From a virus (lineage: Duplodnaviria > Caudoviricetes): DNA of 64,000 nucleotides. The stretch is taken from positions 1 through 64,000 of IMG/VR virus record IMGVR_UViG_2808606549_000001; one strand, given 5' to 3'. The notes below the pieces were generated by a model. That model made no database searches, was not told where the DNA came from, and saw nothing but the letters and a program-made list of their open reading frames with translations. A program made the translations under genes and the position numbers. This document shows, one piece after another, positions 13,071 through 43,170 of the stretch (position 1 is the stretch's first letter; each line of letters begins with the position of its first letter).

Positions 13071-13103
13071 ATATTGTGAGAACATTTTGTGAGGTGTAAA
13101 AGT

Positions 13104-14129
13104 TTGAGAAAAAAGATAACGTTTGAACTTGCAAAATCTAGTTTTGCTGATAGAAATTTAATTTTACTAGAAGATAATTATTTGGATGCGAAAACCAAGA
13201 TGAGATTTCTTTGTCCATTGCATCCTGAGTATGAGCAGAAAATAAACTATGGTAATTTTAGTCAGGGTTACGGATGTACTTGGTGTTCAAATAAGGTTCG
13301 TGCGAACATAGAGATTGTAAAAAATGAGTTCTTAAAACGTGGACTTAAATGTTTGTCGGACGTATATACTAATGAAAATAAGCAGTTAGAATACATATGC
13401 GACAATCATCCTGATTTAATCCAGCTAATTAGTTTCAGGTCAATTAAAAATGGTGTGGGTTGCAGGGAATGCTCTAAAGAAAAATTGAGATCTAGATTTC
13501 AATTAGATTTTGAATTTGTTAAAAATGATTTATTGAAAAATGGTTATGTACTTTTAGAAGATACATATCTAAATGCCAGAACGAAAATGAGATACATTTG
13601 CGAATTTCACCCTTTTGAAATTCAACTATCCAATTATAGCAATATGAAAAAGAAGTCAGCTTGCAGATATTGTGGATTAGAAAAACTTTCAGGAGAAAAT
13701 TGCTTTTATTGGCAAGGAGGAATTACGAAGTTATCACTATATCTTCGAAGTTGTATAAAAAACTGGTCAATTGAAGTAATGAGAGATAATGATTTTAAAT
13801 GTAAAATAACAGGTCGAAAAGGCATACTGGAAGTTCATCATTTAAAGAATTTTAGCGACATACTAAAAGAATCACTTACAGAACTTGGTCTACCAATTAG
13901 ACGAGAAGTTGGAGATTATTCAAAAGATGAGCTTTACCGACTAGAAAATTTATTTGTAAGAAAACATACTTTGGATACAGGGGTTCCATTATTGAAAGAA
14001 ATTCATGACCTATTTCATAAGACATATGGTCGATTTAATAACACACCAGAACAATTCTATGAATTCAAAGAAAGATATCTTTCAGGGGAATTCTCTATTG
14101 TTCCTCAAAAGGAAGCGGTTTTTATTTGA
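13104..14129 (+). CDS. Freestanding HNH-type homing endonuclease with three Zn-ribbon repeats
   Basis: Three repeats of Y..A.TKMR..C..H...C..C; C-terminal LEVHHL...H..FH..YG..NNT.EQF; TTG start after SD GAGGTG. Confidence 0.8.
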   Translation: MRKKITFELAKSSFADRNLILLEDNYLDAKTKMRFLCPLHPEYEQKINYGNFSQGYGCTWCSNKVRANIEIVKNEFLKRGLKCLSDVYTNENKQLEYICDNHPDLIQLISFRSIKNGVGCRECSKEKLRSRFQLDFEFVKNDLLKNGYVLLEDTYLNARTKMRYICEFHPFEIQLSNYSNMKKKSACRYCGLEKLSGENCFYWQGGITKLSLYLRSCIKNWSIEVMRDNDFKCKITGRKGILEVHHLKNFSDILKESLTELGLPIRREVGDYSKDELYRLENLFVRKHTLDTGVPLLKEIHDLFHKTYGRFNNTPEQFYEFKERYLSGEFSIVPQKEAVFI

Positions 14130-14247: not shown

Positions 14248-14733
14248 TTGAGCAAACAACTTAACCTTACAGAAATCAAAAAATTAAATAAAGCAGAATA
14301 TTCAACTACAAAAAGAGTTGAATTAGACAATGGCGAATTCCATCTTGATATCTATGAGAAATTCAAGCCAACTTCCATCAAAAAATTTATTGTTGAGTAC
14401 ATTGAGCTGCTAACTGAACTAAAAACTAAAGGCGTCTCATTTGAAGTTATTAGTGGCATTTCATATGTGTATTACATGTTGCTAATCAGACACTTTACTC
14501 CTAAACCAAATAACATTCCTAAAAATGCAGAGAAGATGTATCTGATTTGTGAAGAACTGATGAATCGAAATATCCTTAGCGATATCATTAATGCGTTCCC
14601 TCCTGAAGAAGTCGCTAAAATTGATGAAGAAATGAAGAAGTTCAATGAAAACACCGACTTATTAAAAAATACTGTTGGTGAACTATTTGTAGATAGCGCT
14701 CTTAAGGAAACTGAAGATGCCACAGTTCAATAA
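14248..14733 (+). CDS. Tail assembly chaperone (putative)
   Basis: Helical 161-aa ORF between the tail tube and tape measure genes. Confidence 0.5.
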   Translation: MSKQLNLTEIKKLNKAEYSTTKRVELDNGEFHLDIYEKFKPTSIKKFIVEYIELLTELKTKGVSFEVISGISYVYYMLLIRHFTPKPNNIPKNAEKMYLICEELMNRNILSDIINAFPPEEVAKIDEEMKKFNENTDLLKNTVGELFVDSALKETEDATVQ

Positions 14734-15196
14734 CTTAAATGATCTGTTTAAGCACATTCAATCAAATATTGTTGATACGCTTAATGATGAAGTAGCCACT
14801 GAAGTAAAATTCGAAGAGCAAAAACAAATTGAGCAAGTTGTGTATGAAGCATATCTCCATCCGTTCCAATATGAGCGCAGAACTTATACAGAAGGTGGCC
14901 TACAGGATATTGATATGATGGTTGCAGTTGTTGAGGTTAAAGGTAACGAGTGTGTTCTATCAGTTGTGAATATGGCAAAAGGCCAGAACGAAGATATATA
15001 CATAGCCCCTCTAATTGAATACGGCGATGGCGTTTATGGTGAGTATCAATATAAATACAATCGCGATAATACTTCATGGAAGTATCTAAGGAGTCGTCCC
15101 TTCACTCAGGCCACTATCGATGCACTCTTGGCATCAGGTAAACATATCAAGGGATTCAAGGAAGGCATGAAGAAGCGTGGTTTCGATATTACTTAG
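14717..15196 (+). CDS. Tail completion protein, HK97 gp10-like (putative)
   Basis: YERR...GL.D...IEYG...RPF motif pattern. Confidence 0.55.
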   Translation: MPQFNNLNDLFKHIQSNIVDTLNDEVATEVKFEEQKQIEQVVYEAYLHPFQYERRTYTEGGLQDIDMMVAVVEVKGNECVLSVVNMAKGQNEDIYIAPLIEYGDGVYGEYQYKYNRDNTSWKYLRSRPFTQATIDALLASGKHIKGFKEGMKKRGFDIT

Positions 15197-15207: not shown

Positions 15208-16227
15208 ATGCCTAGAAAGACATATAAGAAACAAATTACATCTCCAGAATTACTTGAACAGATCGAACCTAAAAATATAAAGATGATGGAACGATTTCTG
15301 CGTGAAAAGAACACCAGAAGCGCTGACGGAACAATTGAAGCATATCGCAGCGATCTTAATATATTCTTCACATGGAATCTTTTAGAGAACGATAATAAGT
15401 TCTTCGTAGATATTAAGAAGATAGAATTTGCTGATTTCTTTAGTTATTGTGTAGAGGAGCTAAAGTGGTCTTCTAACCGTTTCGGTCGGATGCGTTCTTG
15501 CTTGAGCAGCTTTTCGAACTTCATTGAGAACTTTTTTGATGAGCAGCATCCAAACTTCAGGAATGTAATTCTAAAGGCAATTGCACTAATGCCTAAGAAT
15601 CCAGTTCGTGAAAAAACAATCTTATCTGAGCAACAAGTTAATGATCTTCTTAATCATCTGAAAAATGAACTCAACAGACCACAAGAAGCATGTTTGCTTG
15701 CACTAGCAGTTAGTAGCGGAGCGCGAATTTCTGAATTGTTGCGGTTCAAAACATCTCTGATTGATGAAAACAATACAGCATTCGATGATATGTTCCTAGA
15801 GACAACTAAAGAAATCAAGACAAAAGGAAGAACAAAAGCAGGAAAAATGCTTTATAAATATATCATCAAAGACCTCTTCCTCCCCTTCTACAAAGATTGG
15901 CTAGTCGAGCGTGAACGTATTATGAAAGAGAACAATCAAGAACACGACGCTATCTTCATCCTGAGAGATGGGAAGCCAGCAACAGTAGAGGCAGTTCGTG
16001 GATGGTCAGAAAAGTGGGAAGAATTCTTAGGCGTCCCTTTCTACTTCCACTCTCTTCGTCATTACATAGTGACTCACCTCACTCGCTTAGGATTGTCTTC
16101 GGACTTCATCATTGAAATCATGGGTTGGACGAGTGCAGATATGTACAAGGTATACAATGACCTTACGGCAAAAGATCGTAAATGGAAAGACCTCGACAAG
16201 TTAAAGGAACATTTGAAAACTGAATAA
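15208..16227 (+). CDS. Tyrosine recombinase (XerC/D-like), catalytically intact
   Basis: R (GARISEL), K (KTKG), HxxR (HSLRH), W (MGW) and Y (YKVYND) catalytic residues all present. Confidence 0.92.
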   Translation: MPRKTYKKQITSPELLEQIEPKNIKMMERFLREKNTRSADGTIEAYRSDLNIFFTWNLLENDNKFFVDIKKIEFADFFSYCVEELKWSSNRFGRMRSCLSSFSNFIENFFDEQHPNFRNVILKAIALMPKNPVREKTILSEQQVNDLLNHLKNELNRPQEACLLALAVSSGARISELLRFKTSLIDENNTAFDDMFLETTKEIKTKGRTKAGKMLYKYIIKDLFLPFYKDWLVERERIMKENNQEHDAIFILRDGKPATVEAVRGWSEKWEEFLGVPFYFHSLRHYIVTHLTRLGLSSDFIIEIMGWTSADMYKVYNDLTAKDRKWKDLDKLKEHLKTE

Positions 16228-16231
16228 GGTA

Positions 16232-16249
16232 ATGAAATATCACTTTTAT
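16232..16249. repeat. Junction site ATGAAA-TATCAC-TTTTAT immediately after the tyrosine recombinase
   Basis: Perfect consensus copy 4 bp downstream of the recombinase stop codon. Confidence 0.75.
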
Positions 16250-16282
16250 TCACTCTATTATTCACATCAAGGAGGTAAAATA

Positions 16283-17083
16283 TTGGCTGGAAATATTTAT
16301 TTAGATGACAATGGTAAACCAGTAGGATTAAATAATCCACTTCCAGTTCGGAGAGTCGGAAGTAGCGATTATGCTTCTTACCCTGACTTGTCTATCGGAG
16401 TGTCCCCCACAACTATCGTTTTCCCTAAAAGCATGAATAACATCATGATCACTAACGATGGGACCGATGATGTAAAAATCGGTCTACAAGGCAAAAATCC
16501 ATTCGGAACGATCCATGATAATCAGGACATCACATGGTCTTACACTGGAACATGGGTATCGGATACGACAGCAATTCTACGCGCTGTTGGATCGGACGTA
16601 GCAAAAACATCTACTGCTGGTAGTAAGGCTACATATAAACCCAATATTGCTTGCGCTCAAATTGCTGTTTCGATTGCAAAAGGCAGCGCCGCAGGGATTG
16701 CTCAAATTGAAATATCGAATGATGGTGGCAACACCTGGGCTAATCCATCTTCCATTTCAGGTGTTTCCCGTTCTGATGGTTTTACTGGTACTGCTATGGA
16801 TACTTTTGATGCCTACACCTCTGCTACCGCTGGACCTTATGATTTGATTTACACTCTGCCAACTATATCGAACTGGTCTTTGCGTGTTTCATATACAGGT
16901 TCCAAAAACTCAAGTTCGTCAGGGTACAATGTATGGATAGACTGCGGTAAAGTATTTACATCTACGAATGCATCAATCGTTATAAAATCTGGCGAAACGT
17001 TATCACTTGCTATCAGTAGTGGCGATATTCAACTAGCCAGTAAAAGCGGAACACAGCCTGTTAGATTGGTGGTGTCGGTATAA
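16283..17083 (+). CDS. Beta-rich virion-associated protein with a probable carbohydrate-binding module
   Basis: SD AGGAGG plus TTG at 16283; Ser/Thr/Gly-rich; WSYTGTW...GSKNSSSSGYNVWID jelly-roll-like pattern. Confidence 0.55.
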   Translation: MAGNIYLDDNGKPVGLNNPLPVRRVGSSDYASYPDLSIGVSPTTIVFPKSMNNIMITNDGTDDVKIGLQGKNPFGTIHDNQDITWSYTGTWVSDTTAILRAVGSDVAKTSTAGSKATYKPNIACAQIAVSIAKGSAAGIAQIEISNDGGNTWANPSSISGVSRSDGFTGTAMDTFDAYTSATAGPYDLIYTLPTISNWSLRVSYTGSKNSSSSGYNVWIDCGKVFTSTNASIVIKSGETLSLAISSGDIQLASKSGTQPVRLVVSV

Positions 17084-17782
17084 ATGGCAGGACTAAATCT
17101 ATCACCGCCAAGGTTCCAGAGCAAATGGCGTGGAAAAACAGCACATTTTCTCGGGGACAGTATCACACAAGGTGCTGGTTCTTCCACGCCATCAGATCCC
17201 AATTTGTTGTATCATGCTTTAGTTAAAAAGCAGTTGGGTCTCGCTTCTGTATCAAATTATGGCGTTTCTGGGACTCATATTTCAGGCGCGTATACGAACA
17301 CAAGTGGAAACTCAGGCACTCCCACTCAAAGTTTTACTGCAAGGTACAGTGGTATGAGTAACACTGCCGATCTTGTGGTTGTGTTCGGTGGAACAAACGA
17401 CTTTGGTCATGCTGAGACTGCTCCTATTGGGACGTTTGCTGACACAACAGATATCTCGTTTTATGGAGCACTTAGAACCTTGATGAGTGGTTTGATTAAT
17501 AAGTATCCGACTCAGCAGATTGTATTTATGACGCCTTTGCACAGAGAAGCGGATGACACAGCAAACACGGTCACTTCAAAAAAACTTAGCGATTATGTAG
17601 CGATCATAAAAGAGGTGGCGGCATATTATGCTATTCCTGTTTTGGACTTATACAGTGTATCTGGTATCCAACCGAATCTACCGATTGGGAAAACAACCTA
17701 TGCGGGAGATGGTCTGCACCCGAACGCAGCGGGCCATGCGGTGATAGCGAGGAAATTATCTGCATTTTTAGAAACTTTGTAA
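17084..17782 (+). CDS. SGNH/GDSL hydrolase (esterase/deacetylase)
   Basis: GDSITQG, GVSG, GTND and DGLHPN blocks. Confidence 0.9.
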   Translation: MAGLNLSPPRFQSKWRGKTAHFLGDSITQGAGSSTPSDPNLLYHALVKKQLGLASVSNYGVSGTHISGAYTNTSGNSGTPTQSFTARYSGMSNTADLVVVFGGTNDFGHAETAPIGTFADTTDISFYGALRTLMSGLINKYPTQQIVFMTPLHREADDTANTVTSKKLSDYVAIIKEVAAYYAIPVLDLYSVSGIQPNLPIGKTTYAGDGLHPNAAGHAVIARKLSAFLETL

Positions 17783-17870
17783 AAGAATTATTGGTGAGTG
17801 TTCTTCTAATTTTTACTAATAAATCATCTTATAGGCGACTTCATTCAATCGTATTGTCTCTAAAATAGAG

Positions 17871-17894
17871 AAACCGTTGTTTCAGCGGTTTTTT
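17871..17894 (+). terminator. Intrinsic terminator
   Basis: AAACCGTTG-TTT-CAGCGGTTT followed by a T-tract. Confidence 0.6.
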
Positions 17895-18010
17895 TCTTTT
17901 ATAGATAAAAACAATTAAAAAATATAATATCAGTTTTCCATTCCTATACATATACATATTGGTGTAAAATACCAGTATAACTAAATTCATGTTTAGGGGT
18001 GTGAATTGAG

Positions 18011-18382
18011 TTGAAAAGGATCATATTTATTTTGTGTCTGAGTGTCATCTTAACAAGTTGTTCATCTAATAAAACACCAGTTTCGAATGAGATCAAGAAT
18101 AAGTCTAAACAAGTTGGGGAAATATTAATCAACTATATGCAAGACGGTAAACAAATCGATAGTTCACAGCAACGGATTATCGATGCCTATGTTTCAAAAT
18201 ATGGAGAAAAACTATCCTCATTCAATGAGTACGAGCAAGGTGTAATAAACAACATTCTTAAAATGAATAACGATATGTATTATTATAATACTTACAACAA
18301 ATACAGTGATAAATTAAAAGCAATGGAAAGGTTCAACCAAGATTTAGCGGAGTTTAAAGAAATAGACCAAAGTATTAAATAG
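18011..18382 (+). CDS. Lipoprotein (moron)
   Basis: Signal peptide with lipobox ILTS-C; flanked by terminators. Confidence 0.75.
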   Translation: MKRIIFILCLSVILTSCSSNKTPVSNEIKNKSKQVGEILINYMQDGKQIDSSQQRIIDAYVSKYGEKLSSFNEYEQGVINNILKMNNDMYYYNTYNKYSDKLKAMERFNQDLAEFKEIDQSIK

Positions 18383-18397: not shown

Positions 18398-18428
18398 AGG
18401 AGTGGGCGCAACTGCCCTCTCCTTTTTT
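18398..18428 (+). terminator. Intrinsic terminator
   Basis: AGGAGTGGGC-GCAACT-GCCCTCTCCT followed by a T-tract. Confidence 0.6.
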
Positions 18429-18454: not shown

Positions 18455-21400
18455 ATGGGTAATGATTTAAGGATATTAGTCTCAGCTTCATTAAATGTTG
18501 GAAAGAGCATCGGAGACATTAATGCTGCTATTAGTGGTCTTGAGAAAAAAGTAAACAAACTTAAATTGAAAATTGAAGTACCTCAAAATTTTGGTACATA
18601 CATCTCCTCCTTCATCGCAGCAGTGAATAAGATGAAGGCTATCGCAGATGACCAGAATAAAGTTGTAAGAGAAATAACAACAGAATATCAGAGACTTGAT
18701 GGGGCAATTGAGAGGGTTTCAGAGAGCACCCTAGCAAATGGAACTATCATTTCAAAAACAAAAATTAAAATTGATGAACGAGCTAAATCAATAAAGCAAG
18801 AAACAAAGGCAATTGATGACCAAAGAAAGTCTCTGGAAGACTTACTTGCTGAGAATGAGCGTTATAGCAAAAATGTTCAAACGCAAACAAGAAGAAATTC
18901 TAATGGAGAAGTAATTGGTGCTACTCACACTCTTCAAGATAGTCAAAATAACAAACTAGTAGTCAACACAAATGCTGATGGTTTAATTGATAACTATAAG
19001 CAGATAGAAGAATATCTAAAGAATGAACAGCAATTAGCAGCAGAAATTAAGCGAATCGATGCTGAATTAATCAAGAATCATAATGAAACTTACAAGATCA
19101 ATAAAGCAATTAACGATAAGGAACTTGCTGAAGACAAACAGTATTACTTGGCCCAACAAGAGAATGCTAAAAAAAACCTTGAATTTCAACAGGCAATTGC
19201 AGATAAACAAGCTCGCATCAGCGATCTTCAACGGAGGCTAGGGTCTGATAGTAACGTATCGCAGCAACTTAAAGAAGCATCTGATAAACTAAGTAAACTT
19301 GAATTCAGCGGAAATAATAAACTAGTTGGTATCGATGGCAGTTATAAAACTGCACTAAAAGAAGTAGATACGGGACTAAAAAATATTACTGCATCTGCGA
19401 AAACTGCCACTAGTCATGCAATTAGTTTTGGTGAAGCATTTAAAACAGCAATGCAAAAATTCCCAGTGTGGATGGCTGCTACAACCGCATTCTATGCTCC
19501 TCTTCGAGCGCTACAATCTGGTGTACAATACGTCTACAATCTAGATACAGCTCTCACTGACCTCAAAAAAACAACTAATGCCACTTCTGAAGAATATGCT
19601 CAATTTGCTAAAGACGCAGCAAAAACAGCCTCCTCCATCGGTGCTCTCACTCTGGATGTAATCAAGTCTACAACTGAATGGACTCGACTTGGTTATACGA
19701 TGCAACAAGCAACTCAACTGGCAAAGCAAACGACGATATACCAAAATGTTGGTGACATTGCTAACGCGCAAGATGCCTCCACCGCCCTTATTGCCGCAAT
19801 TAAGGGTTTTGGTATCGAAGTTGATTCCCAAGGCAAAAATATCACTCATCTCGTTGATGTGTATAACGAAGTCGGAAATAAGTTCTCGATTTCTTCTGCT
19901 GGAATTGGTGAAGCCGCTAAACGTTCTGCTTCGGCCCTATCGACTGCCGGAAATAGTATGGAACAATCAATTGCCCTGATCACCGCCGCAAATAGTTCAG
20001 TACAAGACCCTGAAAAAATAGGCAACGCGATGAAAACCTTAAGTTTGCGTCTTCGTGGCATCAATGAAGACGGAACAAAGGTTGATGGATTATTCCCTAC
20101 TCTTGAAAAGAAATTTAACTCGCTTGGATTGTCATTGATGAAGAATGACAAAACATTTAAGAGTACATATGAAATATTTCAGGAACTGTCTAAAGTTTGG
20201 GGTAAATTATCAGACTTTCAAAAGTCAGATATATTGGAACTTGTTGCTGGTAAAGAGCAAGCAAACGTAGCCGCCTCCCTCATTAATAACTGGAAAGACG
20301 CCGAAGACGCACTGACTGCTGGGCTGAATAGTTTCGGATCTGCTGCACGAGAAAACGAAACATATATAAATAGTCTTCAAGGCCATGTGGCTCGGTTCCA
20401 GAATGCTGTGAGTACGATGTGGAGCAACAGTATTAGTTCGAGTTTGCTTAAAGGCTTAGTTGATATCGGAACTGAAATTGTCAAATCATTAAACAACGTT
20501 GGTACTATTATTGCGCTTGTTACAGGCCTCTTTCTAACTTTTAAATCTAAGGCAATTGCTGGTTTTATCTCTGGTGTAGGAGAAAGCATTAAAACTCTTC
20601 TAACTTTCAAGACCGAGTTGACAACAACTACTGTGGCCGCTGATGGTACTACTGTGGCAGTCACTAACGCTTCAAGAGCTATGAGGATATTCCAAGCAAG
20701 TCTCGGAGTATTGGGTCTTGTTATTACCGCTGGGTCCCTACTCTACTCTGTTTTCAATGGACTCAACGATGTCACCAAGAAATCTACAGATTTAATTGAT
20801 AGGAACAATAAAGCATACGATAATCAAATCAGTAATTTAAGCGAAGTTAGTTCTTATTATGAAGAAAATTATAAGAACATATCTAAAGATAATACTGTAA
20901 AAGATCAACTGTTCAATATGCAAAACAAACTTATCGATACCTTCGGTTCCGAAGCAGAAGGTCTTGATTTAGTTAATGGTAAGTATGATGAACAGATAAG
21001 TAAAATCAAAGAACTAAATAAAACTGCGCTCGAAAATAATGTTAAGGATGGCCAAATTGCATCGGATGCTATTATGTCTAGACGCTATAGCGATCCTGAA
21101 ATGAGCGCAAAAATCAATTGGCTTTCATTTAATAAATCGAATGATTATGATGTCGGTGGCGACGTTGGCCTTGGCAACTTAAATGTAGAGGAATACTACA
21201 AAAAGTTAAATGATTTGTATAAGGGTATTCAAGATAAGAATGCAGAAGTATTCAAGTATTCTAAACTTATTCCCCAATCAAACGAACAGTGGAATAATGC
21301 GCTTGCTGCTGTAAAACAAAAATTAGACGAAATACAGCCGATTGTCGATCAATTAAACTCTGTCGAATATAAGAAACGTGACTTAATCAAACTCAATACA

Positions 21401-24400
21401 TCTGAACAGGCAAAGTTTAATCAAGAGCAACAGTCGATGTTCGATAAGATTAACGCTTCTCTGTCCGCCCTACCCATTGATAAGTATGAAAAGAGCATGG
21501 TTGGCGTATCATCGGCCATAAAAGATTTTGACGGTAAGAATCTCAATGATGTCCTTGTCAAAATTAAAAGCATTGGCTCAATTACTCCTGACGTATATGC
21601 TAAGATTTCATCTTCTTTAAGAGATGGCTCATCCGCAATTGATAGTAATACAGGTGCCAATAAGCTAAATGCAAAGTCACTAGAAGAACTAGCAAAACAA
21701 TCATCACAAGCAGATTCAGAATTAAAGGATCTCAACCAAATCCTACAAGATACAGCTAACGGTAAAGCACTTGATGCTAAGGCAGTTGCAGATCTTGCTA
21801 TGAAGTATCCTGACTTGCTGGATAAGATTCAGAAAACGGCAAATGGTTGGACTTTTGAAAAGGATGCAATTGAAGATGTTCGACAGGCCCAGATTGCCCT
21901 TCTTGCTGAAGTTAAATCTGCTGAAGCATTAAAGACAACCGAGCTTTATAAGCAACTTCAAACTCGTCTTAAGTATTACGGTATTGAAATCGACAGCATT
22001 ACCGATCTTGCAACTGCACAAGCCGCAATTAGCAATATTTATAATAATGCTAGTTCTCAGACTGGCGAAGAAATTCAAATGGGTAACATCCATGTGAAAG
22101 CCATGACCAAGGAAGCACAGAACACGGCTAGTGCTATTCATCAACTGCTCGATCTAAAGGATAGTTTCAATCAGAAATACACCTCTCTTCTTTCGTCGCC
22201 TAGTTACGGTACGTCAACAACTAAAGAGAAAAAGTCTTCTTCTGGCCCTTCTCTTAATGATGCTATAGCGGAAACGGATCTCACTAAAGAACGCGTCAAA
22301 GCAATGAACGCTGAATATGATGCTCGTGAGAAGAATATCCAATCGCTTGATCGTCAAATTAAGACTGCTGAAAAGTTGAAGGATTATGAGAAGACAGTTG
22401 ACCTCACAACTAAGAAAATTGAGCAACAACGTAAAGCAGTCGAAGACCTCAAGAATGCTCAGAATCAAATGTCTAAGGCTGCTGATACTTTACGCTCTCA
22501 AAATTCTAAGTACAATACTTCAACTTGGTTTGACTCTAATGGTGAGGCATCAGATAAGTATAAGGAATTTCTGAACTCCTTTGCTAAACGTTCACAGGCC
22601 ATTCACGACGATAATAAAATGTCGGTCAAAGAACGTAATGCATCAATCAAACAGATTGACGATGAGCAAAAAGCAGTTGAATCTTTGTTCAACAGTTTGT
22701 ATGCATATAAGCAAGGTTGGTCTGCTAACGCTGATGAAATTCAGAAGATGCTGGATGGTATTGATGCTTCACAAACCAGTCTAGATTCCATGAGACTCGA
22801 CAATACAAATAATTGGCTTGATAAGTTAACCAAGGCGTATTCAGAATTAGATAATCAGATTAATAGGTCGAAGATTATTCAGTCAATGTATGTTGAAGGC
22901 TCTAAGGAATATAATCGTGAAACTGAAATTCAAATCTCCTTGCTTGAAGAGAAACGTTCTGCTGTAGAAAATGATATTGCTTCTATTGAGCAGAAGATAG
23001 CTAGTAACAGTAAGTTATCAGCATCAGAACGCCTTACTGCTGATCAAATCAAATCATTAACAGAGGATTTGAAGCAACGTAAAGCAACGCTGCTAGATGT
23101 CCAAAAAGCAGAATATGATTTTTCTGTTCAATTGGCTCAGAACCTTGTTAATGTTCAAAATAAGATTGACCAGACGGTTATCGATTCCTATCAGTCACAA
23201 ATTGAAACTCTCCAAAAACAATGGGAAGCAGAAGCCGTATCTGAAGAACGTTCTAAACGGTTACTAGAGATATCTGAACTTCAACAAAAAGTTGATATCT
23301 ACCGTTCAGGCACTCTCGCTACTATTTCTGATGAACAAGCGAAACAACTTGGCTTGGAGCAAGCAAAAGCAGATGCTATCCAAGCACAAAACGATATCCT
23401 CAAACAGCAACAAGTCCTTCAGAATATTCAAAAGGAAAAGAATGTTCGAGTATTCCAGGATGGTCAATTTCAGTGGATTGCTGATCCTCGAAAAATACAG
23501 TCTGAAACGGAAAAGTTAACGAAACTCCAAGAAGACTATAGCAAGTCGATGTCGAAATCCCTTGATACCCTACTAGAAGATCTTCAGAGCAAGCAAGAGG
23601 ACTATAATAAATGGGAACTTGACCAGACCAGAAAAAACATCATTGCCCAATTACAGGCGAAGATTGATGCAAAGAACAATGAAATCAAAGTTCGGAATGA
23701 AAAATTTGAGGAAGAGAAAACTGCTTGGGCTGCTCATGGTGTCGATTTGGATACTATCTTAAAATCAAGTTTAGATACCATCAATACTTCATACGGCGAG
23801 AAATGGGATAACATCCTCTCTACTCTCAAATCTAAATTGGCGGAAGCTCAACGACTATACGCTTCAGCAATAGGGTTATCGTCTGCTGTTCCGTCCACAA
23901 GTGGGGCAACAGGAACATCGAGTGTATCCACCACTCCCTCCAACTCTTCTGCTGTAAATGGTATCTTGGGTCAGATGGCACAGAACTCTCAAGACTGGCA
24001 TACAGCCACTACCACAGCAGAAAAGAATGCACTCGCACAAAAGAATCAACAATTATCCAATCAACTTAAATCACAATATAATGTTGATTCTTCCTACGAT
24101 TCCAAAACAGGCAAATGGAATGTGCTTCAGTACCATACGGGCGGCATTGTTGGAGAGGATTCATCAATACCTCAATGGCTTGCGAACAAATTTGGTGTAG
24201 GACAAAATGAACAACTAGCAAAACTTTTAATGGGTGAAATGGTTGTAAAGAACCCCGTTAACATGGTTCAAAACTTTATAAATGGCATCACTGGTGGAAT
24301 GCAAGTTGCATGGAACGCACTTAAATCATCTAGTCAGCCAACTGTTCAAGGTGGAAACACATACGTATTTGAGCATATTGAGGTTAAAACAAATGATGCA

Positions 24401-24445
24401 AAACAGTTTATGAATAATCTCAAACTATATGGCAAGAATCAATAA
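18455..24445 (+). CDS. Tail tape measure protein
   Basis: 1996 aa, coiled-coil; TP901-type tape-measure core; hydrophobic mid-segment; C-terminal YHTGG. Confidence 0.92.
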   Translation: MGNDLRILVSASLNVGKSIGDINAAISGLEKKVNKLKLKIEVPQNFGTYISSFIAAVNKMKAIADDQNKVVREITTEYQRLDGAIERVSESTLANGTIISKTKIKIDERAKSIKQETKAIDDQRKSLEDLLAENERYSKNVQTQTRRNSNGEVIGATHTLQDSQNNKLVVNTNADGLIDNYKQIEEYLKNEQQLAAEIKRIDAELIKNHNETYKINKAINDKELAEDKQYYLAQQENAKKNLEFQQAIADKQARISDLQRRLGSDSNVSQQLKEASDKLSKLEFSGNNKLVGIDGSYKTALKEVDTGLKNITASAKTATSHAISFGEAFKTAMQKFPVWMAATTAFYAPLRALQSGVQYVYNLDTALTDLKKTTNATSEEYAQFAKDAAKTASSIGALTLDVIKSTTEWTRLGYTMQQATQLAKQTTIYQNVGDIANAQDASTALIAAIKGFGIEVDSQGKNITHLVDVYNEVGNKFSISSAGIGEAAKRSASALSTAGNSMEQSIALITAANSSVQDPEKIGNAMKTLSLRLRGINEDGTKVDGLFPTLEKKFNSLGLSLMKNDKTFKSTYEIFQELSKVWGKLSDFQKSDILELVAGKEQANVAASLINNWKDAEDALTAGLNSFGSAARENETYINSLQGHVARFQNAVSTMWSNSISSSLLKGLVDIGTEIVKSLNNVGTIIALVTGLFLTFKSKAIAGFISGVGESIKTLLTFKTELTTTTVAADGTTVAVTNASRAMRIFQASLGVLGLVITAGSLLYSVFNGLNDVTKKSTDLIDRNNKAYDNQISNLSEVSSYYEENYKNISKDNTVKDQLFNMQNKLIDTFGSEAEGLDLVNGKYDEQISKIKELNKTALENNVKDGQIASDAIMSRRYSDPEMSAKINWLSFNKSNDYDVGGDVGLGNLNVEEYYKKLNDLYKGIQDKNAEVFKYSKLIPQSNEQWNNALAAVKQKLDEIQPIVDQLNSVEYKKRDLIKLNTSEQAKFNQEQQSMFDKINASLSALPIDKYEKSMVGVSSAIKDFDGKNLNDVLVKIKSIGSITPDVYAKISSSLRDGSSAIDSNTGANKLNAKSLEELAKQSSQADSELKDLNQILQDTANGKALDAKAVADLAMKYPDLLDKIQKTANGWTFEKDAIEDVRQAQIALLAEVKSAEALKTTELYKQLQTRLKYYGIEIDSITDLATAQAAISNIYNNASSQTGEEIQMGNIHVKAMTKEAQNTASAIHQLLDLKDSFNQKYTSLLSSPSYGTSTTKEKKSSSGPSLNDAIAETDLTKERVKAMNAEYDAREKNIQSLDRQIKTAEKLKDYEKTVDLTTKKIEQQRKAVEDLKNAQNQMSKAADTLRSQNSKYNTSTWFDSNGEASDKYKEFLNSFAKRSQAIHDDNKMSVKERNASIKQIDDEQKAVESLFNSLYAYKQGWSANADEIQKMLDGIDASQTSLDSMRLDNTNNWLDKLTKAYSELDNQINRSKIIQSMYVEGSKEYNRETEIQISLLEEKRSAVENDIASIEQKIASNSKLSASERLTADQIKSLTEDLKQRKATLLDVQKAEYDFSVQLAQNLVNVQNKIDQTVIDSYQSQIETLQKQWEAEAVSEERSKRLLEISELQQKVDIYRSGTLATISDEQAKQLGLEQAKADAIQAQNDILKQQQVLQNIQKEKNVRVFQDGQFQWIADPRKIQSETEKLTKLQEDYSKSMSKSLDTLLEDLQSKQEDYNKWELDQTRKNIIAQLQAKIDAKNNEIKVRNEKFEEEKTAWAAHGVDLDTILKSSLDTINTSYGEKWDNILSTLKSKLAEAQRLYASAIGLSSAVPSTSGATGTSSVSTTPSNSSAVNGILGQMAQNSQDWHTATTTAEKNALAQKNQQLSNQLKSQYNVDSSYDSKTGKWNVLQYHTGGIVGEDSSIPQWLANKFGVGQNEQLAKLLMGEMVVKNPVNMVQNFINGITGGMQVAWNALKSSSQPTVQGGNTYVFEHIEVKTNDAKQFMNNLKLYGKNQ

Positions 24446-28860: not shown

Positions 28861-31125
28861 TTGCCATTAAGCAACAATAAATTATTAAAATTATCTTTCA
28901 AACATAAAGACCAGCCAGATAAGCCCAATATGACAACAGAGCAGTTTAAAGCTGCCGTAGATAGTCAGGCAGAAGAACTACAGGCGAAACATAATAGTTT
29001 AATCGATGAGTTGGAAGGGATGGGAATATCAACTCGATCCGATCTTGATAAACACGGATATGATATTACGAGCGCAAAGTACGGAGCTATTAATAGCGGA
29101 TCTATCGATACCAGTCAGGCGTTTATATTTGCGTCCTTCGATTTGACGGCTATCGGCGGGGGCGAAATGTATGTTCCACCTGGCACATACCGAATTTCTG
29201 CGAATGTGGATATACCCAGTGGGGTTGTTGTCGTATTAGCGAATGGGGCGCGCATTTCCGTGGACACAGGCTTTACCTTTAAGGCCAATATACAGGCTCG
29301 CCCATCAAGCAATATCTTCACTGGACCTGGGACGGTATTACTGCCTTATACGAAGGAGATTTATCCGCAGTGGTTTGGGGCTAAACCGGATGGAGCGACC
29401 GAGAATTCCGCAGCTATCAATAACATGCTGGCTTCGTCGGATAGTTGCGACATGATATTTACGGCTGGAGTGTATCTTGTCGAAACAGATATCACAGTTT
29501 TGAAACCGGACGTGAGGCTAATCGGTCGTGGCGCAACTATTAAATCGTTGAATGCGACGGCGGGACGATTGGCCGTAAAAAGCTGCAAGGAAATAAGTGG
29601 ATTCACTTTCGACCGCGCGACGATCTACGTGCCGTATGATTACGATAATGGGTTTATGCGCATACAGTTCAACAAGTTTTTGAATACTGGGCTGTCGATT
29701 TATTTCGGGTGCGGTTTTAGTCGATGGGCTCAAAATGTTCATATACTCTGGAACGAATTCAACGGGTGCTCTTATGCGGTTTATGGCGCTCTCACAAACG
29801 GCCTAATCGCTTTTAACAAAATGTCGAATTCACTTAGCCGGAACATCGAATTGGCCGCTGGAGACGATACCGTTATTTTAGGAAATCGAATCGATGGCGG
29901 GATTACTGCGATTAGTTTTCTTTGTTCGCGTGATCTTACAGGTGGGAAAGGTGCTCACAATGTCGTTATCTCTGAAAACGTCGTATCCAATGTTTCAGAA
30001 GAAGCGATTGGTTGCGATCTTCGAGGGAACACATCGGGGAAAACTGGAACAGTAAAAACTGGAACTATCACCGCTTATTACAGGGACACTCCTGGGAGGC
30101 AAATCGTTCCCGACTTCGCATTTACCAACTACCAATACTTGCGCTACTACGTCGTCATGCTGACTGGCAAATCGAAAGGGAAAATCTATGAAATTGACTA
30201 CATGGGACCTACTGGAGTTGAAATGTTCCAGCTCTCCGAAGGTTCGACCAGCACTTCGCAGCCGGATGTTGCCGTTGGAGACAAGTTTGTTATCCAAGTG
30301 CCGTATCTTGGATTCGTCATCTCAAACAATGTGATCCATAACTGCACGACGGGTATTTCGTTATGGGGCAATTCCTTTCATACGCGGATCGTGAACAACC
30401 GCATACGGAATACGCCCAATGCTGCCGTCGCTATCAATACGCTATATGGGTTCGTGGATGGTGGTTATGGATGCTGCTTCCACAATACCATCGAAGGCAA
30501 CGAGATTATGAAGGGGAACATCCAAGTCACAGGGTTTGACAAGTATGGCGCTGCTGACCTCCCTTCCTATGGAAATCAGATTATCAATAACCGAATTCAG
30601 CATGGCACCATCACCTATTCCCGTCAGAACGACTTTTTGATAGAAGGGAATATCTGTGATGACCTAATTGTGGAATATTGCGGGAATACCTTGCCAGATG
30701 CCAGTCAGCAATACGCTGGGCGGACTCGCGTAATTGTGGATTCAGGAATCAAGCAGCGAGAGCGTGTTAACGTTACATCTGGGGCGACATCAAGTGGCAA
30801 TATAACCATTTCGCTTGGTGGAGCTAACTACCAAATTGCTGTTGTTACAGGTGACACTCCAAGCACTATAGCGAGCAAAATCAATGCGGCCACGTTCAAT
30901 GGCTTTACAACCGAATATATAGGTGGAGCGACTTCGGTAAAGTTCATTTCAACTTCGCTAGGATCGAAACCGACTGGATCGTTCAACGCAGGAACGACGG
31001 GCGCAGCAGGTACATTCTCGACAATTGCTTTGGGAAGCAATGGTTCAGGCGTCGCAGATACTGCCTATGTTTGCCTTAAGTCCGCGACCGGAACCTATTC
31101 ATGGAAACCACTCACCAACGGTTAA
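28861..31125 (+). CDS. Tailspike with right-handed beta-helix (pectin-lyase-like depolymerase)
   Basis: YGA...DT..F...GGG.MYVPPGTY and WFGAKPDG..EN..AI motifs; repeated I.NN.I beta-helix rungs; SD AGGAGG plus TTG at 28861. Confidence 0.85.
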   Translation: MPLSNNKLLKLSFKHKDQPDKPNMTTEQFKAAVDSQAEELQAKHNSLIDELEGMGISTRSDLDKHGYDITSAKYGAINSGSIDTSQAFIFASFDLTAIGGGEMYVPPGTYRISANVDIPSGVVVVLANGARISVDTGFTFKANIQARPSSNIFTGPGTVLLPYTKEIYPQWFGAKPDGATENSAAINNMLASSDSCDMIFTAGVYLVETDITVLKPDVRLIGRGATIKSLNATAGRLAVKSCKEISGFTFDRATIYVPYDYDNGFMRIQFNKFLNTGLSIYFGCGFSRWAQNVHILWNEFNGCSYAVYGALTNGLIAFNKMSNSLSRNIELAAGDDTVILGNRIDGGITAISFLCSRDLTGGKGAHNVVISENVVSNVSEEAIGCDLRGNTSGKTGTVKTGTITAYYRDTPGRQIVPDFAFTNYQYLRYYVVMLTGKSKGKIYEIDYMGPTGVEMFQLSEGSTSTSQPDVAVGDKFVIQVPYLGFVISNNVIHNCTTGISLWGNSFHTRIVNNRIRNTPNAAVAINTLYGFVDGGYGCCFHNTIEGNEIMKGNIQVTGFDKYGAADLPSYGNQIINNRIQHGTITYSRQNDFLIEGNICDDLIVEYCGNTLPDASQQYAGRTRVIVDSGIKQRERVNVTSGATSSGNITISLGGANYQIAVVTGDTPSTIASKINAATFNGFTTEYIGGATSVKFISTSLGSKPTGSFNAGTTGAAGTFSTIALGSNGSGVADTAYVCLKSATGTYSWKPLTNG

Positions 31126-31525: not shown

Positions 31526-32014
31526 ATGGAATATTTGAGGATCATGGCAGAGTCTACAAAGACAACTTTTATAAAAATGTTTACTGATTCAGTATTTTAT
31601 GTTGGCGGAGTTTCAATTGGAGTAATTTGCTATTTGACGGGACTTACGCCACAGCAAATTGGAAGTGCGTTTGTTCTCATTATATTAGATATTATTTCGA
31701 GAGTCTGGGCAGAAAAGGCCAACAATAGACCTATCATTTCCAGAAAGATGTATGCTGGATTTAGTGGCAAAGTAATGGCTTATATTATTCTTCTTATTGC
31801 TGCAAACCAAATCTTTTTTATTGGTGAGTACTTGCAATATGTTATTCTTTCCGGTTTTGGCTTAATTGAGATTCGCAGCATATACGAGAACTTAGTCGAT
31901 GCCAAGCAGAAGCACTTGGATATAATCGGAGATAAAATTAATCAAGAAATAGAAAATTTCAAAGCGAAGCCGAATGAAGAATTCACAAAACCAAATGATA
32001 CAAATACACAATAA
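31526..32014 (+). CDS. Holin (phage holin 4 family-like)
   Basis: Several transmembrane segments; LDI.S...I.S.....G...K...E..SI.EN motif; upstream of the amidase. Confidence 0.8.
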   Translation: MEYLRIMAESTKTTFIKMFTDSVFYVGGVSIGVICYLTGLTPQQIGSAFVLIILDIISRVWAEKANNRPIISRKMYAGFSGKVMAYIILLIAANQIFFIGEYLQYVILSGFGLIEIRSIYENLVDAKQKHLDIIGDKINQEIENFKAKPNEEFTKPNDTNTQ

Positions 32015-32132: not shown

Positions 32133-32954
32133 ATGATCAAGAAGGGAAACTTCCAACTGTTTGAATCAATTGATGAATTCGCAGATTGGCTGTCTAAAGA
32201 GAATATCACAAGACGGATCTCCACATTGCAAGTTCATCATACTGCCTCTCCTAACTACACAACAAGAAAAAATCAGGATTATTTCGCGTGTCTCGAAGGT
32301 ATGCGAAATTTTCATATCAATACAAATGGTTGGACTGCAACGGGTCAGAACATCACTACTTTCGAGGATGGTAAGATTGCTCTGTCACTAGATAGAGATC
32401 TGAATAAGACTCCAGCAGGTATCAAGGGCGCGAATGAATCTGCAATTTGTATTGAGAATATAGGCAACTTCGACAAAGGAGGAGACTCGATTACTCAAAT
32501 CCAGAAGGATACAATCGTGAAATTGTATGCCCTCCTCGCTCTAAAACTCAGTATTCCTGTTGATACGGATCATATCGTTTATCATGCTTGGTATGATGAA
32601 TCAGGTAAGCGACTGAAAGATTATACTCCTGGCCAATCATCGAAAACATGTCCAGGAACTAATTTCTTTGGCACAGGTAACACTATTGCTTCAGCGAACA
32701 CTTCTTTTATCCCAATGGTCAGAGATGAAGTACTAAAAATTAAAAATAAAAAGGTGGAAGAAATTTTGAATACTTTCAGTAAGTACTTCGACGACGTGAC
32801 TAAGCAATATCAGGCTGCTTCCATAGATTCCGCAAAAGATAAGGGTTTTATCACTGGAGTAGACGCGAAGCATTTTAACCCTGATGGCAACGTAACACGT
32901 GGCGACTTAGCCGTTATTATTAACCGTGTCGTAGACTATATCCTTAAACACTAA
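32133..32954 (+). CDS. Endolysin: N-acetylmuramoyl-L-alanine amidase (Amidase_2) with C-terminal SLH domain
   Basis: VHHTA...ICIE..GNFD...YH...KTCPG; GFITG....FNPDGNVTRGDLAVIINR SLH motif. Confidence 0.9.
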   Translation: MIKKGNFQLFESIDEFADWLSKENITRRISTLQVHHTASPNYTTRKNQDYFACLEGMRNFHINTNGWTATGQNITTFEDGKIALSLDRDLNKTPAGIKGANESAICIENIGNFDKGGDSITQIQKDTIVKLYALLALKLSIPVDTDHIVYHAWYDESGKRLKDYTPGQSSKTCPGTNFFGTGNTIASANTSFIPMVRDEVLKIKNKKVEEILNTFSKYFDDVTKQYQAASIDSAKDKGFITGVDAKHFNPDGNVTRGDLAVIINRVVDYILKH

Positions 32955-33386: not shown

Positions 33387-33404
33387 ATAAAAGACAAATT
33401 TCAT
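33387..33404. repeat. Junction site ATAAAA-GACAAA-TTTCAT at the end of the lysis cassette
   Basis: Perfect consensus copy (CG-ATAAAA-N6-TTTCAT-G) 10 bp after the stop, oriented with + strand genes. Confidence 0.7.
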
Positions 33405-33614: not shown

Positions 33615-33842
33615 TTGAACGAATTGTTTTATACGCAAAGTACAAATTTAGCTGCTTACCTAGTGATGAACGGATTTGAAATTGTAGGCGTGCGAAAACC
33701 AAACGGACGGTCAACTACGATTTACTTTAACAAGACAGATGCTCTTCATGATTGCGTTAGAACTTATAACACTGAAGATCAACTAAAGAAATTCATTTCT
33801 GCATTCAAAACAGTAAAAGAAAAAATCAACTATCACAATTGA
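33615..33842 (+). CDS. Small DUF5659-like protein
   Basis: S..LAAYL...GF.........T..YF..T..L...V..Y pattern; SD GAGGAG. Confidence 0.6.
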   Translation: MNELFYTQSTNLAAYLVMNGFEIVGVRKPNGRSTTIYFNKTDALHDCVRTYNTEDQLKKFISAFKTVKEKINYHN

Positions 33843-33876: not shown

Positions 33877-34488
33877 ATGCTTGAAGATAAATACGGGAAA
33901 CACGGAGAACAGTTTTATGATGTAGAGACTGGAAAAATAGTTGAATTAGATGAGTTATCAAAAGCTATAAATGAAAGCATACAAGAGGAATATGCGAAAG
34001 GCGTTAGTTATTTAGTTAGTTTGGGAATGAAAATACCTCTTCGCTTAGTAAAGGCAAGAAACGGCGAAAGTTATAATATTATTAACATCAAGGAAAGGTT
34101 CCATTTCACAAAAATATTTAAGACGGATGTGAGATTCGTGCTAGACGAGTTCAAATTAAGTGTCTATAGTCGAGCATTTCTTTATTCTCTTCTACCCTAC
34201 CTTTACTTTCCTACAAATACAGTCATAATTGACGGAAAGAATCCAGAGATCGATGACTTGATGAAACTCGTGGGAATTGGAAAATCTAAAATTTATGAAG
34301 TAATGAATGAGCTAGAAAATTTGAATATCATCAAAAGAGAAAAAGTGAATGGTAAACTTATTATTTATTTTAATCCATTCCTTCATTCTTGCGGACTTGT
34401 TGATACGGAAACATATAAATTGTTTGAGAATAGTATATTTAATCCACTCCATGATATGACTAAAGGAGTCCAAGAAGTAAGAACGTAA
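33877..34488 (+). CDS. RepL-like winged-helix protein (Firmicutes plasmid replication/maintenance family)
   Basis: FYDVETG, F.KIF, HTH GIGKSKIYEVMNELENLNII, YFNP. Confidence 0.65.
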   Translation: MLEDKYGKHGEQFYDVETGKIVELDELSKAINESIQEEYAKGVSYLVSLGMKIPLRLVKARNGESYNIINIKERFHFTKIFKTDVRFVLDEFKLSVYSRAFLYSLLPYLYFPTNTVIIDGKNPEIDDLMKLVGIGKSKIYEVMNELENLNIIKREKVNGKLIIYFNPFLHSCGLVDTETYKLFENSIFNPLHDMTKGVQEVRT

Positions 34489-34758: not shown

Positions 34759-36093
34759 ATGGGCGTGTATCAATTCGGAGAGTTGGCTTTTTTGGTATCT
34801 TTGATCGCATCAGTATTTTTGCCGATGAGATTTGCGCTGATAGCATATGTTGTTATGTGCAACATCGATATGCCAGGAATCGGAAACATAGTAAAAATAT
34901 TGATCGTCCCCGTGATCTTGCTTTTTCGACTTAACCGTATGAATAAACATAACCACTCAAATGAAAACCCTAAAATAGTTCAGGTTCCATATTTATTTTG
35001 GGGAATCTTTCTGGCATACTCCATTTTCGCAATTGCATGGTCACCTATCAATTATACGGCTGGAATCAAATTTTCCGCAAACTTAATAGGCATTTTGTTG
35101 TTTTATCTTGTATTTAAGAGAGCAAATGCCAACGATTTTTTAAATGCTCGATTTCTTACTGCTTCTATTGTAAGTACTCTCGCATTGGGTATCATTCAAA
35201 CATATATCCTTGATTCGACATATGGTTCAGAATATTCACGGTTTACCGGATTCATGGCTTCTCAGCCTTATGCAGCTTTCCTAGTAGGCTTGCTAATACT
35301 GGTGATCTGGAATAATCAATACAGAATTCCAACTAAATTAATTTTATCGGTTTCTCTGATTACTGCTTTGATACTAAACGGCAGTAGAACATGGTTTATC
35401 GGAGCTTGCATTGTATTGGCTGTATTATCATTATCCACAGTACTTACCAGTTCTCTTCATATAAGCATCGTATCTTTTGTATTGTTAATTGTTATAGTTG
35501 GAGGGTCTTTGTTCTATAATTATGCAATGCAAAACCAAGAACGACTTGAAAATTCAAATCGTTTATTCCAGGGATTTTACACTCTTACTGGTCAAGATAG
35601 TAACAAAGGAACAATCGGTTTCCGAAAAAACATGAACGAAGGAATGATCGACGAGATTAAGCATAGCACAGAACTTAAGTTATTTTTCGGGCATGGCACA
35701 TCAAGTTCTGAGTACGTAGCCAGAAAATACGAATCATATCAATTCCATGGCGATAATGTTGACTCCAATCGGGTTGCTCATAACGAGTGGCTTCGAATTA
35801 CTTACGAATTTGGCATCCTCGGTATGATGTTCTGGGTATCGTTTTTGTTAAGTTGTTTCTTCTACCTTGTAAGTAAGGGGTATCAGGTAGCGCCCATTCT
35901 TGCATACGGTGGTGGGATGCTTGTCGCTCTGACATCCGAGAATGTGATCATGGGAGCTGGTACAGTCGGGTTATGCGGCCTTATGATCGTAATAGCATCA
36001 AAACAGAAGAAAAGCGTAAGTGTGGATTCTACTCCAGCAGTGACAAGAACCATGATGAGACAGATGAATAGTAGGCTAAGTTTAAATAAGTGA
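34759..36093 (+). CDS. O-antigen ligase/polymerase (Wzy_C-like) polytopic membrane protein
   Basis: About 11-12 transmembrane segments; GSRT, FFGHG and AHNEWLRITYEFGILG signatures; own extended -10 (TGATACAAT). Confidence 0.8.
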   Translation: MGVYQFGELAFLVSLIASVFLPMRFALIAYVVMCNIDMPGIGNIVKILIVPVILLFRLNRMNKHNHSNENPKIVQVPYLFWGIFLAYSIFAIAWSPINYTAGIKFSANLIGILLFYLVFKRANANDFLNARFLTASIVSTLALGIIQTYILDSTYGSEYSRFTGFMASQPYAAFLVGLLILVIWNNQYRIPTKLILSVSLITALILNGSRTWFIGACIVLAVLSLSTVLTSSLHISIVSFVLLIVIVGGSLFYNYAMQNQERLENSNRLFQGFYTLTGQDSNKGTIGFRKNMNEGMIDEIKHSTELKLFFGHGTSSSEYVARKYESYQFHGDNVDSNRVAHNEWLRITYEFGILGMMFWVSFLLSCFFYLVSKGYQVAPILAYGGGMLVALTSENVIMGAGTVGLCGLMIVIASKQKKSVSVDSTPAVTRTMMRQMNSRLSLNK

Positions 36094-37239: not shown

Positions 37240-37285
37240 CATGGTTTTGTAATATAATATGAGCAAATTATGCTACAAAACCATG
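37240..37285. other. Candidate attP for the serine integrase
   Basis: 46-bp imperfect inverted repeat (CATGGTTTTGTA...TACAAAACCATG; 19 of 22 positions symmetric) around a central AG at 37262-37263; overlaps the integrase stop. Confidence 0.65.
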
Positions 37286-43113: not shown

Positions 43114-43170
43114 TTAGTTGTTACACTCCTTTCAAAAATCAGATGAAACGGCAATTTTATTGGAATTTTG

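Follow-up and report, generated by a model that had tools for sequence, protein, structure and literature searches.

A YomM/gp50-family tyrosine recombinase and a dispersed dyad beside it in the tail module of a distant SPbeta-like phage

The window considered here is the first 64 kb of a viral record of 127,534 bp (IMGVR_UViG_2808606549_000001; genome label G000), which tblastn with SPbeta proteins identifies as a distant SPbeta-like phage. Within its plus-strand block of structural and lysis genes (416-36248), a gene for an intact tyrosine recombinase of 339 amino acids occupies 15208-16227 (+), and a short dyad, ATGAAA-TATCAC-TTTTAT, lies just behind it at 16232-16249 (+). The order is stop codon TAA (16225-16227), GGTA, and then ATGAAATATCACTTTTAT, which confirms the 4-bp distance from the stop given in the initial annotation of this DNA and leaves 33 nucleotides (nt) between the dyad and the TTG at which the next gene starts. 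On the other side, the AGGAGG ribosome site of the recombinase directly follows the stop of the F6 gene (14717-15196, +; 159 amino acids; phrog_16506), which overlaps by 17 nt (14717-14733) a YomO-like gene of family F5 (14248-14733, +; 161 amino acids; phrog_7383) that is kept in relatives and, by tblastn, is 32% identical to SPbeta YomO over 142 residues. The F5/F6 overlap occupies the usual siphovirus place of a frameshifted tail-chaperone pair. Downstream, three accessory genes come before the tape measure protein gene (18455-24445, +; 1996 amino acids; family F3), which tblastn with SPbeta YomI matches with an E value of 7e-43.

The recombinase matches PF00589 with an E value of 3.3e-22, scoring 79.5 bits where the cut-off is 27.1, and the full record has no other match to this family. 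Alignment with XerA (4a8e) and homologues puts its catalytic positions at R173, H281, R284, W307, and Y316, with a candidate catalytic lysine within the 204-213 hairpin, where K213 is invariant in a six-sequence alignment; the domain match and the aligned residues agree with the earlier description of the enzyme as intact. An N-terminal SAM-like core-binding domain is indicated by PF13495 at 22.2 bits, below the cut-off of 27. The XerC, XerD, XerS, and XerA equivalog models score the protein at 34-70 bits against cut-offs of 220-335, and the integron-integrase model TIGR02249 gives 18.8 bits against a cut-off of 265, with residues 37-189 alone matched. By these models, the enzyme bears no more than a general resemblance to Xer proteins and is remote from IntI.

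By homology, it is a member of the YomM/gp50 family. SPbeta YomM is a distant homologue (25% identity over 264 residues, E 1e-13), and Tsamsa gp227, Lactococcus LW81_155, and Staphylococcus 6ec_55, at 25-26% identity, all keep R, H-x-x-R, H, and Y; tblastn reaches Tsamsa-like, 949-like, and 6ec-like phages with E values of 1e-10 to 1e-16. Paenibacillus and viral-contig relatives are much closer, at 71-83% identity, the closest in bacterial genomes being Paenibacillus prophages (72-83%). In YomM, a lysine replaces the second catalytic arginine and the C terminus aligns poorly. The initial annotation had named YomM as a tyrosine recombinase in the same region of SPbeta, and both the position and the distant homology were found: yomM comes after yomO and yomN, and behind it lie variable genes and then yomI, which encodes the tape measure protein. 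We found no mention of YomM in the SPbeta literature searched. In Tsamsa and LW81, the recombinase gene stands directly before a tape measure gene of 3,100-3,200 codons.

G000 encodes two further DNA binders of the recombinase fold, a MrpR/SroF-like protein (84418-85389 of the record; PF22822 and PF22823) and a YopP-like protein (119585-120634 of the record; its N-terminal SAM-like domain is all that Pfam matches). Among the three, the YomM-like protein alone matches PF00589. The three recombinase-fold genes of Tsamsa correspond by tblastn to these YomM-like, YopP-like, and MrpR-like genes. The MrpR-family repressor homologue of G000 adjoins a DndB-like YopQ homologue (84418-86742, -), as in the yopQ-yopR pair of SPbeta.

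The dyad behind the recombinase is one of many. ATGAAA-N6-TTTTAT has 10 exact copies in the window; with at most one mismatch it matches 20 times there, whereas shuffled sequences gave 2.86 matches on average. Over the whole record the exact copies number 29, and 60 first-order Markov simulations produced a mean of 0.23. With numbers so far above expectation, the copy at 16232 is real and not a chance match. It is, however, a somewhat unusual member of the family, with flanks (ggta/tcac) that depart from the family preference (yCyC/CG). It lies in the minority orientation relative to transcription, and its arms extend to 8 of 11 complementary positions. The ATG inside it is not a likely start for the next gene, for which TTG at 16283 is favored. 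A reading of the same spot as a sigma-A promoter (ATGAAA-N18-TATTAT) was rejected, this being one of 9 weak matches around 14-19 kb where 16.8 were expected by chance, so that the region has no excess of promoters.

Similar dyads occur in related phages. A search for over-represented 6-N-6 pairs, in which tallies of palindromic pairs count both strands, recovered a genome-specific variant in every phage of the SPbeta/Tyrovirus supergroup that was examined, and on their sequences these variants are one family, xTrAAA-N6-TTTyAy. Beside the 29 copies in G000, there are 32 of ATGAAA-N6-TTTCAT (both strands) and 20 of ATGAAA-N6-TTTTAT in G004, 31 and 29 of GTAAAA-N6-TTTTAT in G002 and G003, respectively, and 12 (both strands) of a weaker ATGAAA type in G001. 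ATAAAA-N6-TTTTAT is found at 13 sites in SPbeta (NC_001884), which become 36 when the pattern is broadened to include the TTTTAA form, and at 20 sites in Tsamsa (KC481682). Staphylococcus phage 6ec has five sites, one of which bears the label "PHIRE predicted regulatory element" in the phage record, and Lactococcus LW81 has two, plus three of the GTAAAA form. In control phages of Firmicutes, the general dyad pattern is absent from SPO1, SPP1, and phi105 and is found once in phage K, in the terminal repeat. That single phage K match (NC_005880, 8376-8393 and 148207-148224) reads ATAAAAGAGGGATTTTAT and is identical to the SPbeta copy downstream of yomM (39885), which may be a coincidence. The SPbeta and Tyrovirus literature used here, in which no search was aimed at the dyad, does not mention it, and the "PHIRE" label in 6ec is the one annotation of it that we noted.

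The placement of the dyads between genes has several regular features. They are found at ~12% of gene junctions, and the usual G000 form, written in the direction of the gene, is a stop codon, ATAAAA-N6-TTTCAT, and a ribosome site. Dyad orientation follows transcription at 20:4 in G000, 12:3 in SPbeta, and 7:0 in G001. The xTAAAA half contains the TAA of the preceding gene in 16 of 34 oriented G000 readings, as compared with 9% of all xTAAAA words, and the per-site fractions of dyads that hold the upstream stop are similar in SPbeta and G002. A ribosome site often abuts the second half, and reversed copies, too, stand upstream of ribosome sites. The spacers differ from copy to copy in G000. 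An explanation at the level of RNA was considered and set aside: the folds of four dyad contexts were no better than those of shuffled sequences (z of -0.99 to +1.05), and the window has no match to an Rfam family, which makes recognition of the dyad at the DNA level more likely.

In whole genomes, late blocks of 36-57 kb hold 2 to 7 dyads, and one or two of these flank the recombinase in G000, G002, G003, and G004. We compared the recombinase locus of the window with nine viral relatives and three Paenibacillus loci, which group into nine distinct close lineages. The order F6, recombinase, (F14), F7, tape measure gene is kept in seven of nine viral-contig relative loci (five of seven distinct lineages). 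The genome's own dyad lies at most 600 bp downstream of the recombinase in six of the nine lineages, at or overlapping its stop codon in three (the window, L009, and L083), and upstream of it in three. Further afield, SPbeta has a dyad copy 416 bp downstream of yomM, and phage 6ec has one ~115 bp upstream of its recombinase homologue. Dyad and recombinase are thus genuinely linked in position. The link is not universal, as no copy of the own dyad was found within 600 bp of the recombinase in the other three lineages (L006/12, L007, and L081, the last being the closest relative at 83% identity). In L005/13 and L006/12, moreover, just 13-30 nt separate the recombinase from F7, and in LW81, 17 nt without a dyad separate it from the tape measure gene. 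The spacer of the downstream copy, CTATCC, is kept in L008, L010, and L083. In L008 (7259-7280) and L010 (7273-7294), the F7 gene opens with 12 bases (ATGAAACTATAC) similar to those of the dyad ~50 bp upstream (GTAAAACTATCC); a local duplication or a degenerate half-site may account for the likeness.

The initial annotation had asked whether homologous recombinases are followed by a site matching each genome's own repeat and whether the genes downstream vary. On the first count the answer is mixed, being positive in six lineages if nearby downstream copies are admitted, in three if the site must be at the stop, and negative in three; on the second it is positive, because the relatives do differ in the genes that separate the recombinase from the tape measure gene. 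With orthologues that often have an adjacent dyad and with variable genes downstream, the idea of a functional pairing of recombinase and site is not refuted by these comparisons.

In G000, the variable slot holds the three accessory genes, which are absent from all 12 relative loci compared and, on this comparison, are a lineage-specific insert. The first (16283-17083, +) encodes a 266-residue protein of a rare family without a known domain, with three homologues at 46-55% identity, one of them from Paenibacillus cineris. Its start is most likely the TTG at 16283, 7 nt after AGGAGG, and the three homologues begin at the same residue. The protein had been labeled carbohydrate-binding-like, a description that our searches do not confirm: there was no hit in Pfam, PHROG, NCBIfam, or Atlas, matches to PDB sequences were sub-threshold (E 0.06), and no longer or fused relatives were found. 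The second gene (17084-17782, +), whose start abuts the stop of the first, encodes an SGNH/GDSL esterase of 232 amino acids (PF13472, 1.4e-25), as had been proposed. Its best PHROG match is to the C-terminal part (452-668 of 670) of a "tail fiber protein" (phrog_5240, 2e-54), and the esterase may thus be associated with the virion rather than pure cargo. A terminator-like hairpin follows at 17867-17895 (+), and another stands just before the tape measure gene at 18404-18417 (+); between the two lies a moron-like gene for a small putative lipoprotein of 123 amino acids (18011-18382, +). Its assignment as a lipoprotein, also made previously, is plausible on the basis of the N terminus, MKRIIFILCLSVILTSCSS, with an LTSC lipobox, although LPAM_1 scores 17.1 bits, below its cut-off of 20. 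No second dyad with at most one mismatch was found between 16250 and 18454. Inverted or direct repeats that would bound the cargo, or an invertible segment, were also sought, and nothing emerged beyond short matches at the level of chance.

How, then, are the dyads and the recombinase related? The reading that we favor, although in our judgment the case for it is evenly poised, is that the dyads are regulatory punctuation and that the recombinase is their neighbor rather than their enzyme. In the YomM/gp50 family, the recombinase gene has a fixed place in the tail module, immediately ahead of the tape measure gene, and so would be co-transcribed late; late transcription is suggested by the position of the gene together with the YonO-like polymerase that the phage encodes. 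Each dyad would be a protein-binding signal in DNA, tied to expression of the next cistron, and not a site for the recombination of cassettes. The overlap with stop codons, the abutment of ribosome sites, the orientation bias, and the lack of an RNA fold together point to a near-palindromic protein site of this kind at the starts of cistrons. The recombinase gene and the slot behind it would then be separately punctuated units inside the late operon, and we propose that the dyad recurs beside the recombinase because gene and slot behave in this way. The enzyme itself would most likely act on phage DNA that has been replicated or packaged, in a reaction like that of Cre or Xer; binding by it to the dyads is possible.

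Comparable punctuation is known elsewhere. The stoperators of mycobacteriophage L5 and the PeSL regulatory cassettes of T4-type phages likewise number in the dozens, each a short site that occupies a narrow gap between genes and points in the direction of transcription. Both serve as regulatory punctuation, and module borders can fall at them. The G000 dyad differs from both in being near-palindromic and in appearing to work in both orientations, and its regulatory role is suggested by its placement.

Several observations weigh against a purely regulatory role. First, the positional link is stronger than a pure bystander model predicts: 9 of the 17 late-region dyads of the relatives are within 600 bp of the recombinase, although its flanks make up ~10% of the sequence (these near-gene copies are partly orthologous and so are not independent events), and in G002/G003, L008/L082, and L083, the recombinase has dyads on both sides. 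Second, by analogy, inverted arms around a 6-bp spacer are the architecture of Xer-type core sites. Third, the Tyrovirus precedent discussed below puts a putative site exactly after the stop of a homologous gene. Fourth, every phage group in which we found the dyad family also carries the recombinase, although these groups share other genes as well. Finally, the orientation bias is weak or absent in G002, G003, and G004.

These points lead to the first alternative, that the adjacent dyad is the recombinase's own core site, comparable with loxP for Cre, difSL for XerS, and the putative attP of gp50. A late enzyme would recombine this one site between genome copies, for example in resolving multimers or in cyclizing terminally redundant DNA, and the dispersed copies would be look-alikes that are bound weakly or are bound by paralogous proteins of the recombinase fold. 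The recurrence of the dyad near the stop, the paired arms described above for 16232, and the conservation of the CTATCC spacer are all consistent with such a site. The catalytic residues are intact, and they are kept even in the 949-group phage LW81, which we take to be virulent. The closest parallel is in print: the part of PMC9703825 drawn on here describes "Tyroviruses," named for their three tyrosine recombinases, with gp50 between the neck and tape measure genes, a putative attP of 11-6-11 form right after the gp50 stop (in Thrax1 with perfect 11-bp arms), and the same gene placement in 949-group phages; for Tsamsa, PMC3903500 likewise gives three recombinase-fold genes. We find a 14-6-14 palindrome (13 of 14 positions complementary) directly after the gp227 stop of Tsamsa (L047, 7944-7977), which is evidently the putative attP of PMC9703825. 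Among the other genomes, no long palindrome was found beside the recombinase, 6ec having a terminator hairpin there. G000 resembles the Tyrovirus arrangement in having a homologous enzyme (26% identity to gp227) encoded in the structural module ahead of the tape measure gene, three recombinase-fold genes, and, by inference, co-transcription with late genes; the inverted arms and 6-bp spacer behind its recombinase stop may correspond to the Tyrovirus site. It differs in that its site is 6-6-6 and belongs to a dispersed family of 29 copies, in the three accessory genes that lie between recombinase and tape measure gene, and in its Paenibacillus host. The Tsamsa palindrome, which is unique in its genome, is also unrelated in sequence to the dyad. 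In addition, the lineages without a nearby copy, the very short gaps behind the recombinase in several others, the atypical flanks at 16232, and the altered active site of YomM weigh against a dedicated core site. We thus consider this alternative unlikely, although it is the most serious of those weighed here.

A second alternative is that the dyads are stoperator-like repression sites of a MrpR/SroF-like or YopP-like protein, and that the tail-module recombinase has nothing to do with them. A MrpR-like homologue is present in every dyad-rich genome examined, Tsamsa included, and in neither of the dyad-poor phages 6ec and LW81, and its distribution matches that of the dyad-rich genomes more closely than does the distribution of the tail-module recombinase. 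The orientation bias recalls that of mycobacteriophage stoperators, which are oriented with transcription. According to the portion of the SroF preprint used here (bioRxiv 10.1101/2025.11.27.690993), SroF binds DNA as a monomer through its recombinase fold. Its operator in SPbeta-family phages, SPBRE, resembles the dyad in being a dispersed intergenic element that is recognized by a recombinase-fold protein. The two are nevertheless distinct. As presented in the sections of PMC10516654 consulted, all ten peaks of MrpR in chromatin affinity purification sequencing (ChAP-seq) of SPbeta are at SPBRE. Upstream of the ChAP-seq target genes, we read SPBRE as approximately ATACAAAWAATATGTAT, inside -35/-10 promoters. 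It is present at ~10 sites, as compared with ~36 dyads in SPbeta, and a monomer binds it as a box of 24-26 bp. Identity of the dyad with SPBRE was rejected because the SPBRE boxes of SPbeta differ from the dyad in sequence, and a search for an SPBRE-like box in G000 returned a recurring k-mer, ATACATATG, in unrelated contexts. As for YopP, a homologue is also present in the dyad-poor LW81. Repression by either protein at the dyads seems rather improbable to us.

Third, the YomM/gp50 recombinases might read the dispersed dyads themselves, so that 20-50 Xer-type core sites at cistron boundaries would be served by a late-made, catalytically active enzyme. If so, the recombinase would be a site-specific nicking or relaxing enzyme that acts on replicating or packaging DNA, or the engine of gene-cassette exchange, and the copy beside its own gene would be its primary or autoregulatory site. 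The initial annotation had named the enzyme as the best candidate for acting on the repeats. The positional link supports that choice, but other observations weaken it: Tsamsa has 20 dyads, none adjoining its recombinase, where the different, unique palindrome is found; LW81 keeps the recombinase with 2 to 5 dyads; SPbeta keeps ~36 dyads although YomM has lysine for the second catalytic arginine; and the MrpR-like and YopP-like proteins are further DNA binders of the same fold. On balance, we regard a general reading of the dyads by these enzymes as doubtful indeed.

Last, the locus had been likened to an intI/attI arrangement. In an integron-like system, the dispersed dyads would correspond to attC and the copy after the recombinase stop to attI, with cassettes captured or shuffled on replicating concatemers. 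A tyrosine recombinase gene with an adjoining site and variable genes downstream fits this scheme, as do the co-occurrence of dyad and recombinase in the same phage groups and the dyads at cistron boundaries that often hold the upstream stop codon. In some integron cassettes, too, the site holds the stop codon of the upstream gene. The scheme fails where it can be tested, however, and we consider it highly improbable: the enzyme is not of the IntI family; a dyad flanks the cargo on a single side, with no attC-like site for each cassette; the small indels beside the recombinase (F14 and a 101-residue open reading frame in L083) are not each bounded by dyads; mosaic breakpoints between G003 and G002 (other pairs being too diverged at the DNA level) are not significantly enriched at dyad junctions (15 of 40 versus 53 of 203 without a dyad, p 0.18; 11 of 45 versus 56 of 261 in the reciprocal comparison, p 0.70); stems of 6 bp made of A/T pairs do not fold into a stable strand; no alternative joints appear in the Logan contigs from the likely source sample, which are blind to rare forms; and the spacers differ between copies, a mismatch that blocks classical strand exchange by Cre, Flp, and Xer.

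The dyad is shared, in genome-specific variants, by SPbeta, Tsamsa, and the Paenibacillus phages, is absent or nearly so from four unrelated phages of Firmicutes, and differs from SPBRE. It thus has the look of a second layer of cis-acting signals, as yet undescribed, and it can be tested directly in Bacillus subtilis and SPbeta, a well-studied model phage. The tail-module tyrosine recombinases of large siphoviruses of Firmicutes (YomM, gp50, and the 949-group "integrase") are conserved, and most of them retain an intact active site. The placement of a gp50-type recombinase and a putative site after its stop are already in print in the part of PMC9703825 cited above; the window adds a Paenibacillus lineage to the YomM/gp50 family and the lead that a phage's own dyad tends to adjoin the recombinase gene. 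With SPbeta YomM, the G000 enzyme has in common the position in the tail module, distant homology, and an own dyad downstream (at 416 bp in SPbeta), and it differs from YomM in retaining the second catalytic arginine.

The other dyad copies of the window can be viewed in the same light. Only one is in the late block, at 33387-33404 (-), 11 nt after a 131-residue gene that lies behind the holin (31526-32014, +) and endolysin (32133-32954, +) genes. It precedes accessory genes for a DUF5659 protein (33615-33842), a protein with a weak TrmB-like helix-turn-helix match (33877-34488), and a Wzy_C (O-antigen ligase-like) membrane protein (34759-36093, +) at the end of the late block. Both late-block dyads of G000 are thus found at a change from structural or lysis genes to accessory ones. 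The remaining copies, all on the plus strand, are in the early region, whose genes are on the minus strand. One (43143-43160) is upstream of the start of the DNA polymerase gene. The upstream stop codon is held by those at 46342-46359 (where the upstream gene is on the minus strand), 48945-48962 (with a ribosome site following), 56939-56956, and 62184-62201, the last of which also adjoins the GGGGG ribosome site of the gene that follows. A further early-region copy is at 57204-57221, and those at 62619-62636 and 63789-63806 abut AGGAAAGG and GGAGAG ribosome sites, respectively.

In the phage collection, no DNA nearly identical to the window was found. tblastn with SPbeta proteins matches, in addition to a homologue of the YonO-type RNA polymerase at 52% identity, the HU-like YonN, the RecU-like YotM, an SprA-like large serine recombinase, YopP, YopQ, and YopR/MrpR, and the morphogenesis genes of G000 are nearer to those of Tsamsa and the Lactococcus 949-group phages than to those of SPbeta. 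The large serine recombinase, which the initial annotation had taken as evidence that integration does not need the tyrosine enzyme, was found at 37273-38916 (-) with Resolvase, Recombinase, and Zn_ribbon_recom domains; it is 32% identical to SprA over 207 residues and is likely the phage integrase.

Some additional features of the late block deserve mention. The Wzy_C, DUF5659, and TrmB-like genes behind the second late-block dyad may be lysogenic-conversion genes. Between the major tail protein-like and YomO-like genes, a 346-residue protein (13089-14129, +) has endonuclease-like PHROG matches (phrog_681 and phrog_5104), and this position is a second variable slot, in which relatives hold families F8, F11, F12, F20, and F21. 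A tail-region protein of 754 amino acids (28861-31125, +) with a pectate-lyase-like beta-helix domain (PF12708) is likely a depolymerase tail spike, and the presence of both this protein and the SGNH esterase suggests that the phage attacks a surface polysaccharide.

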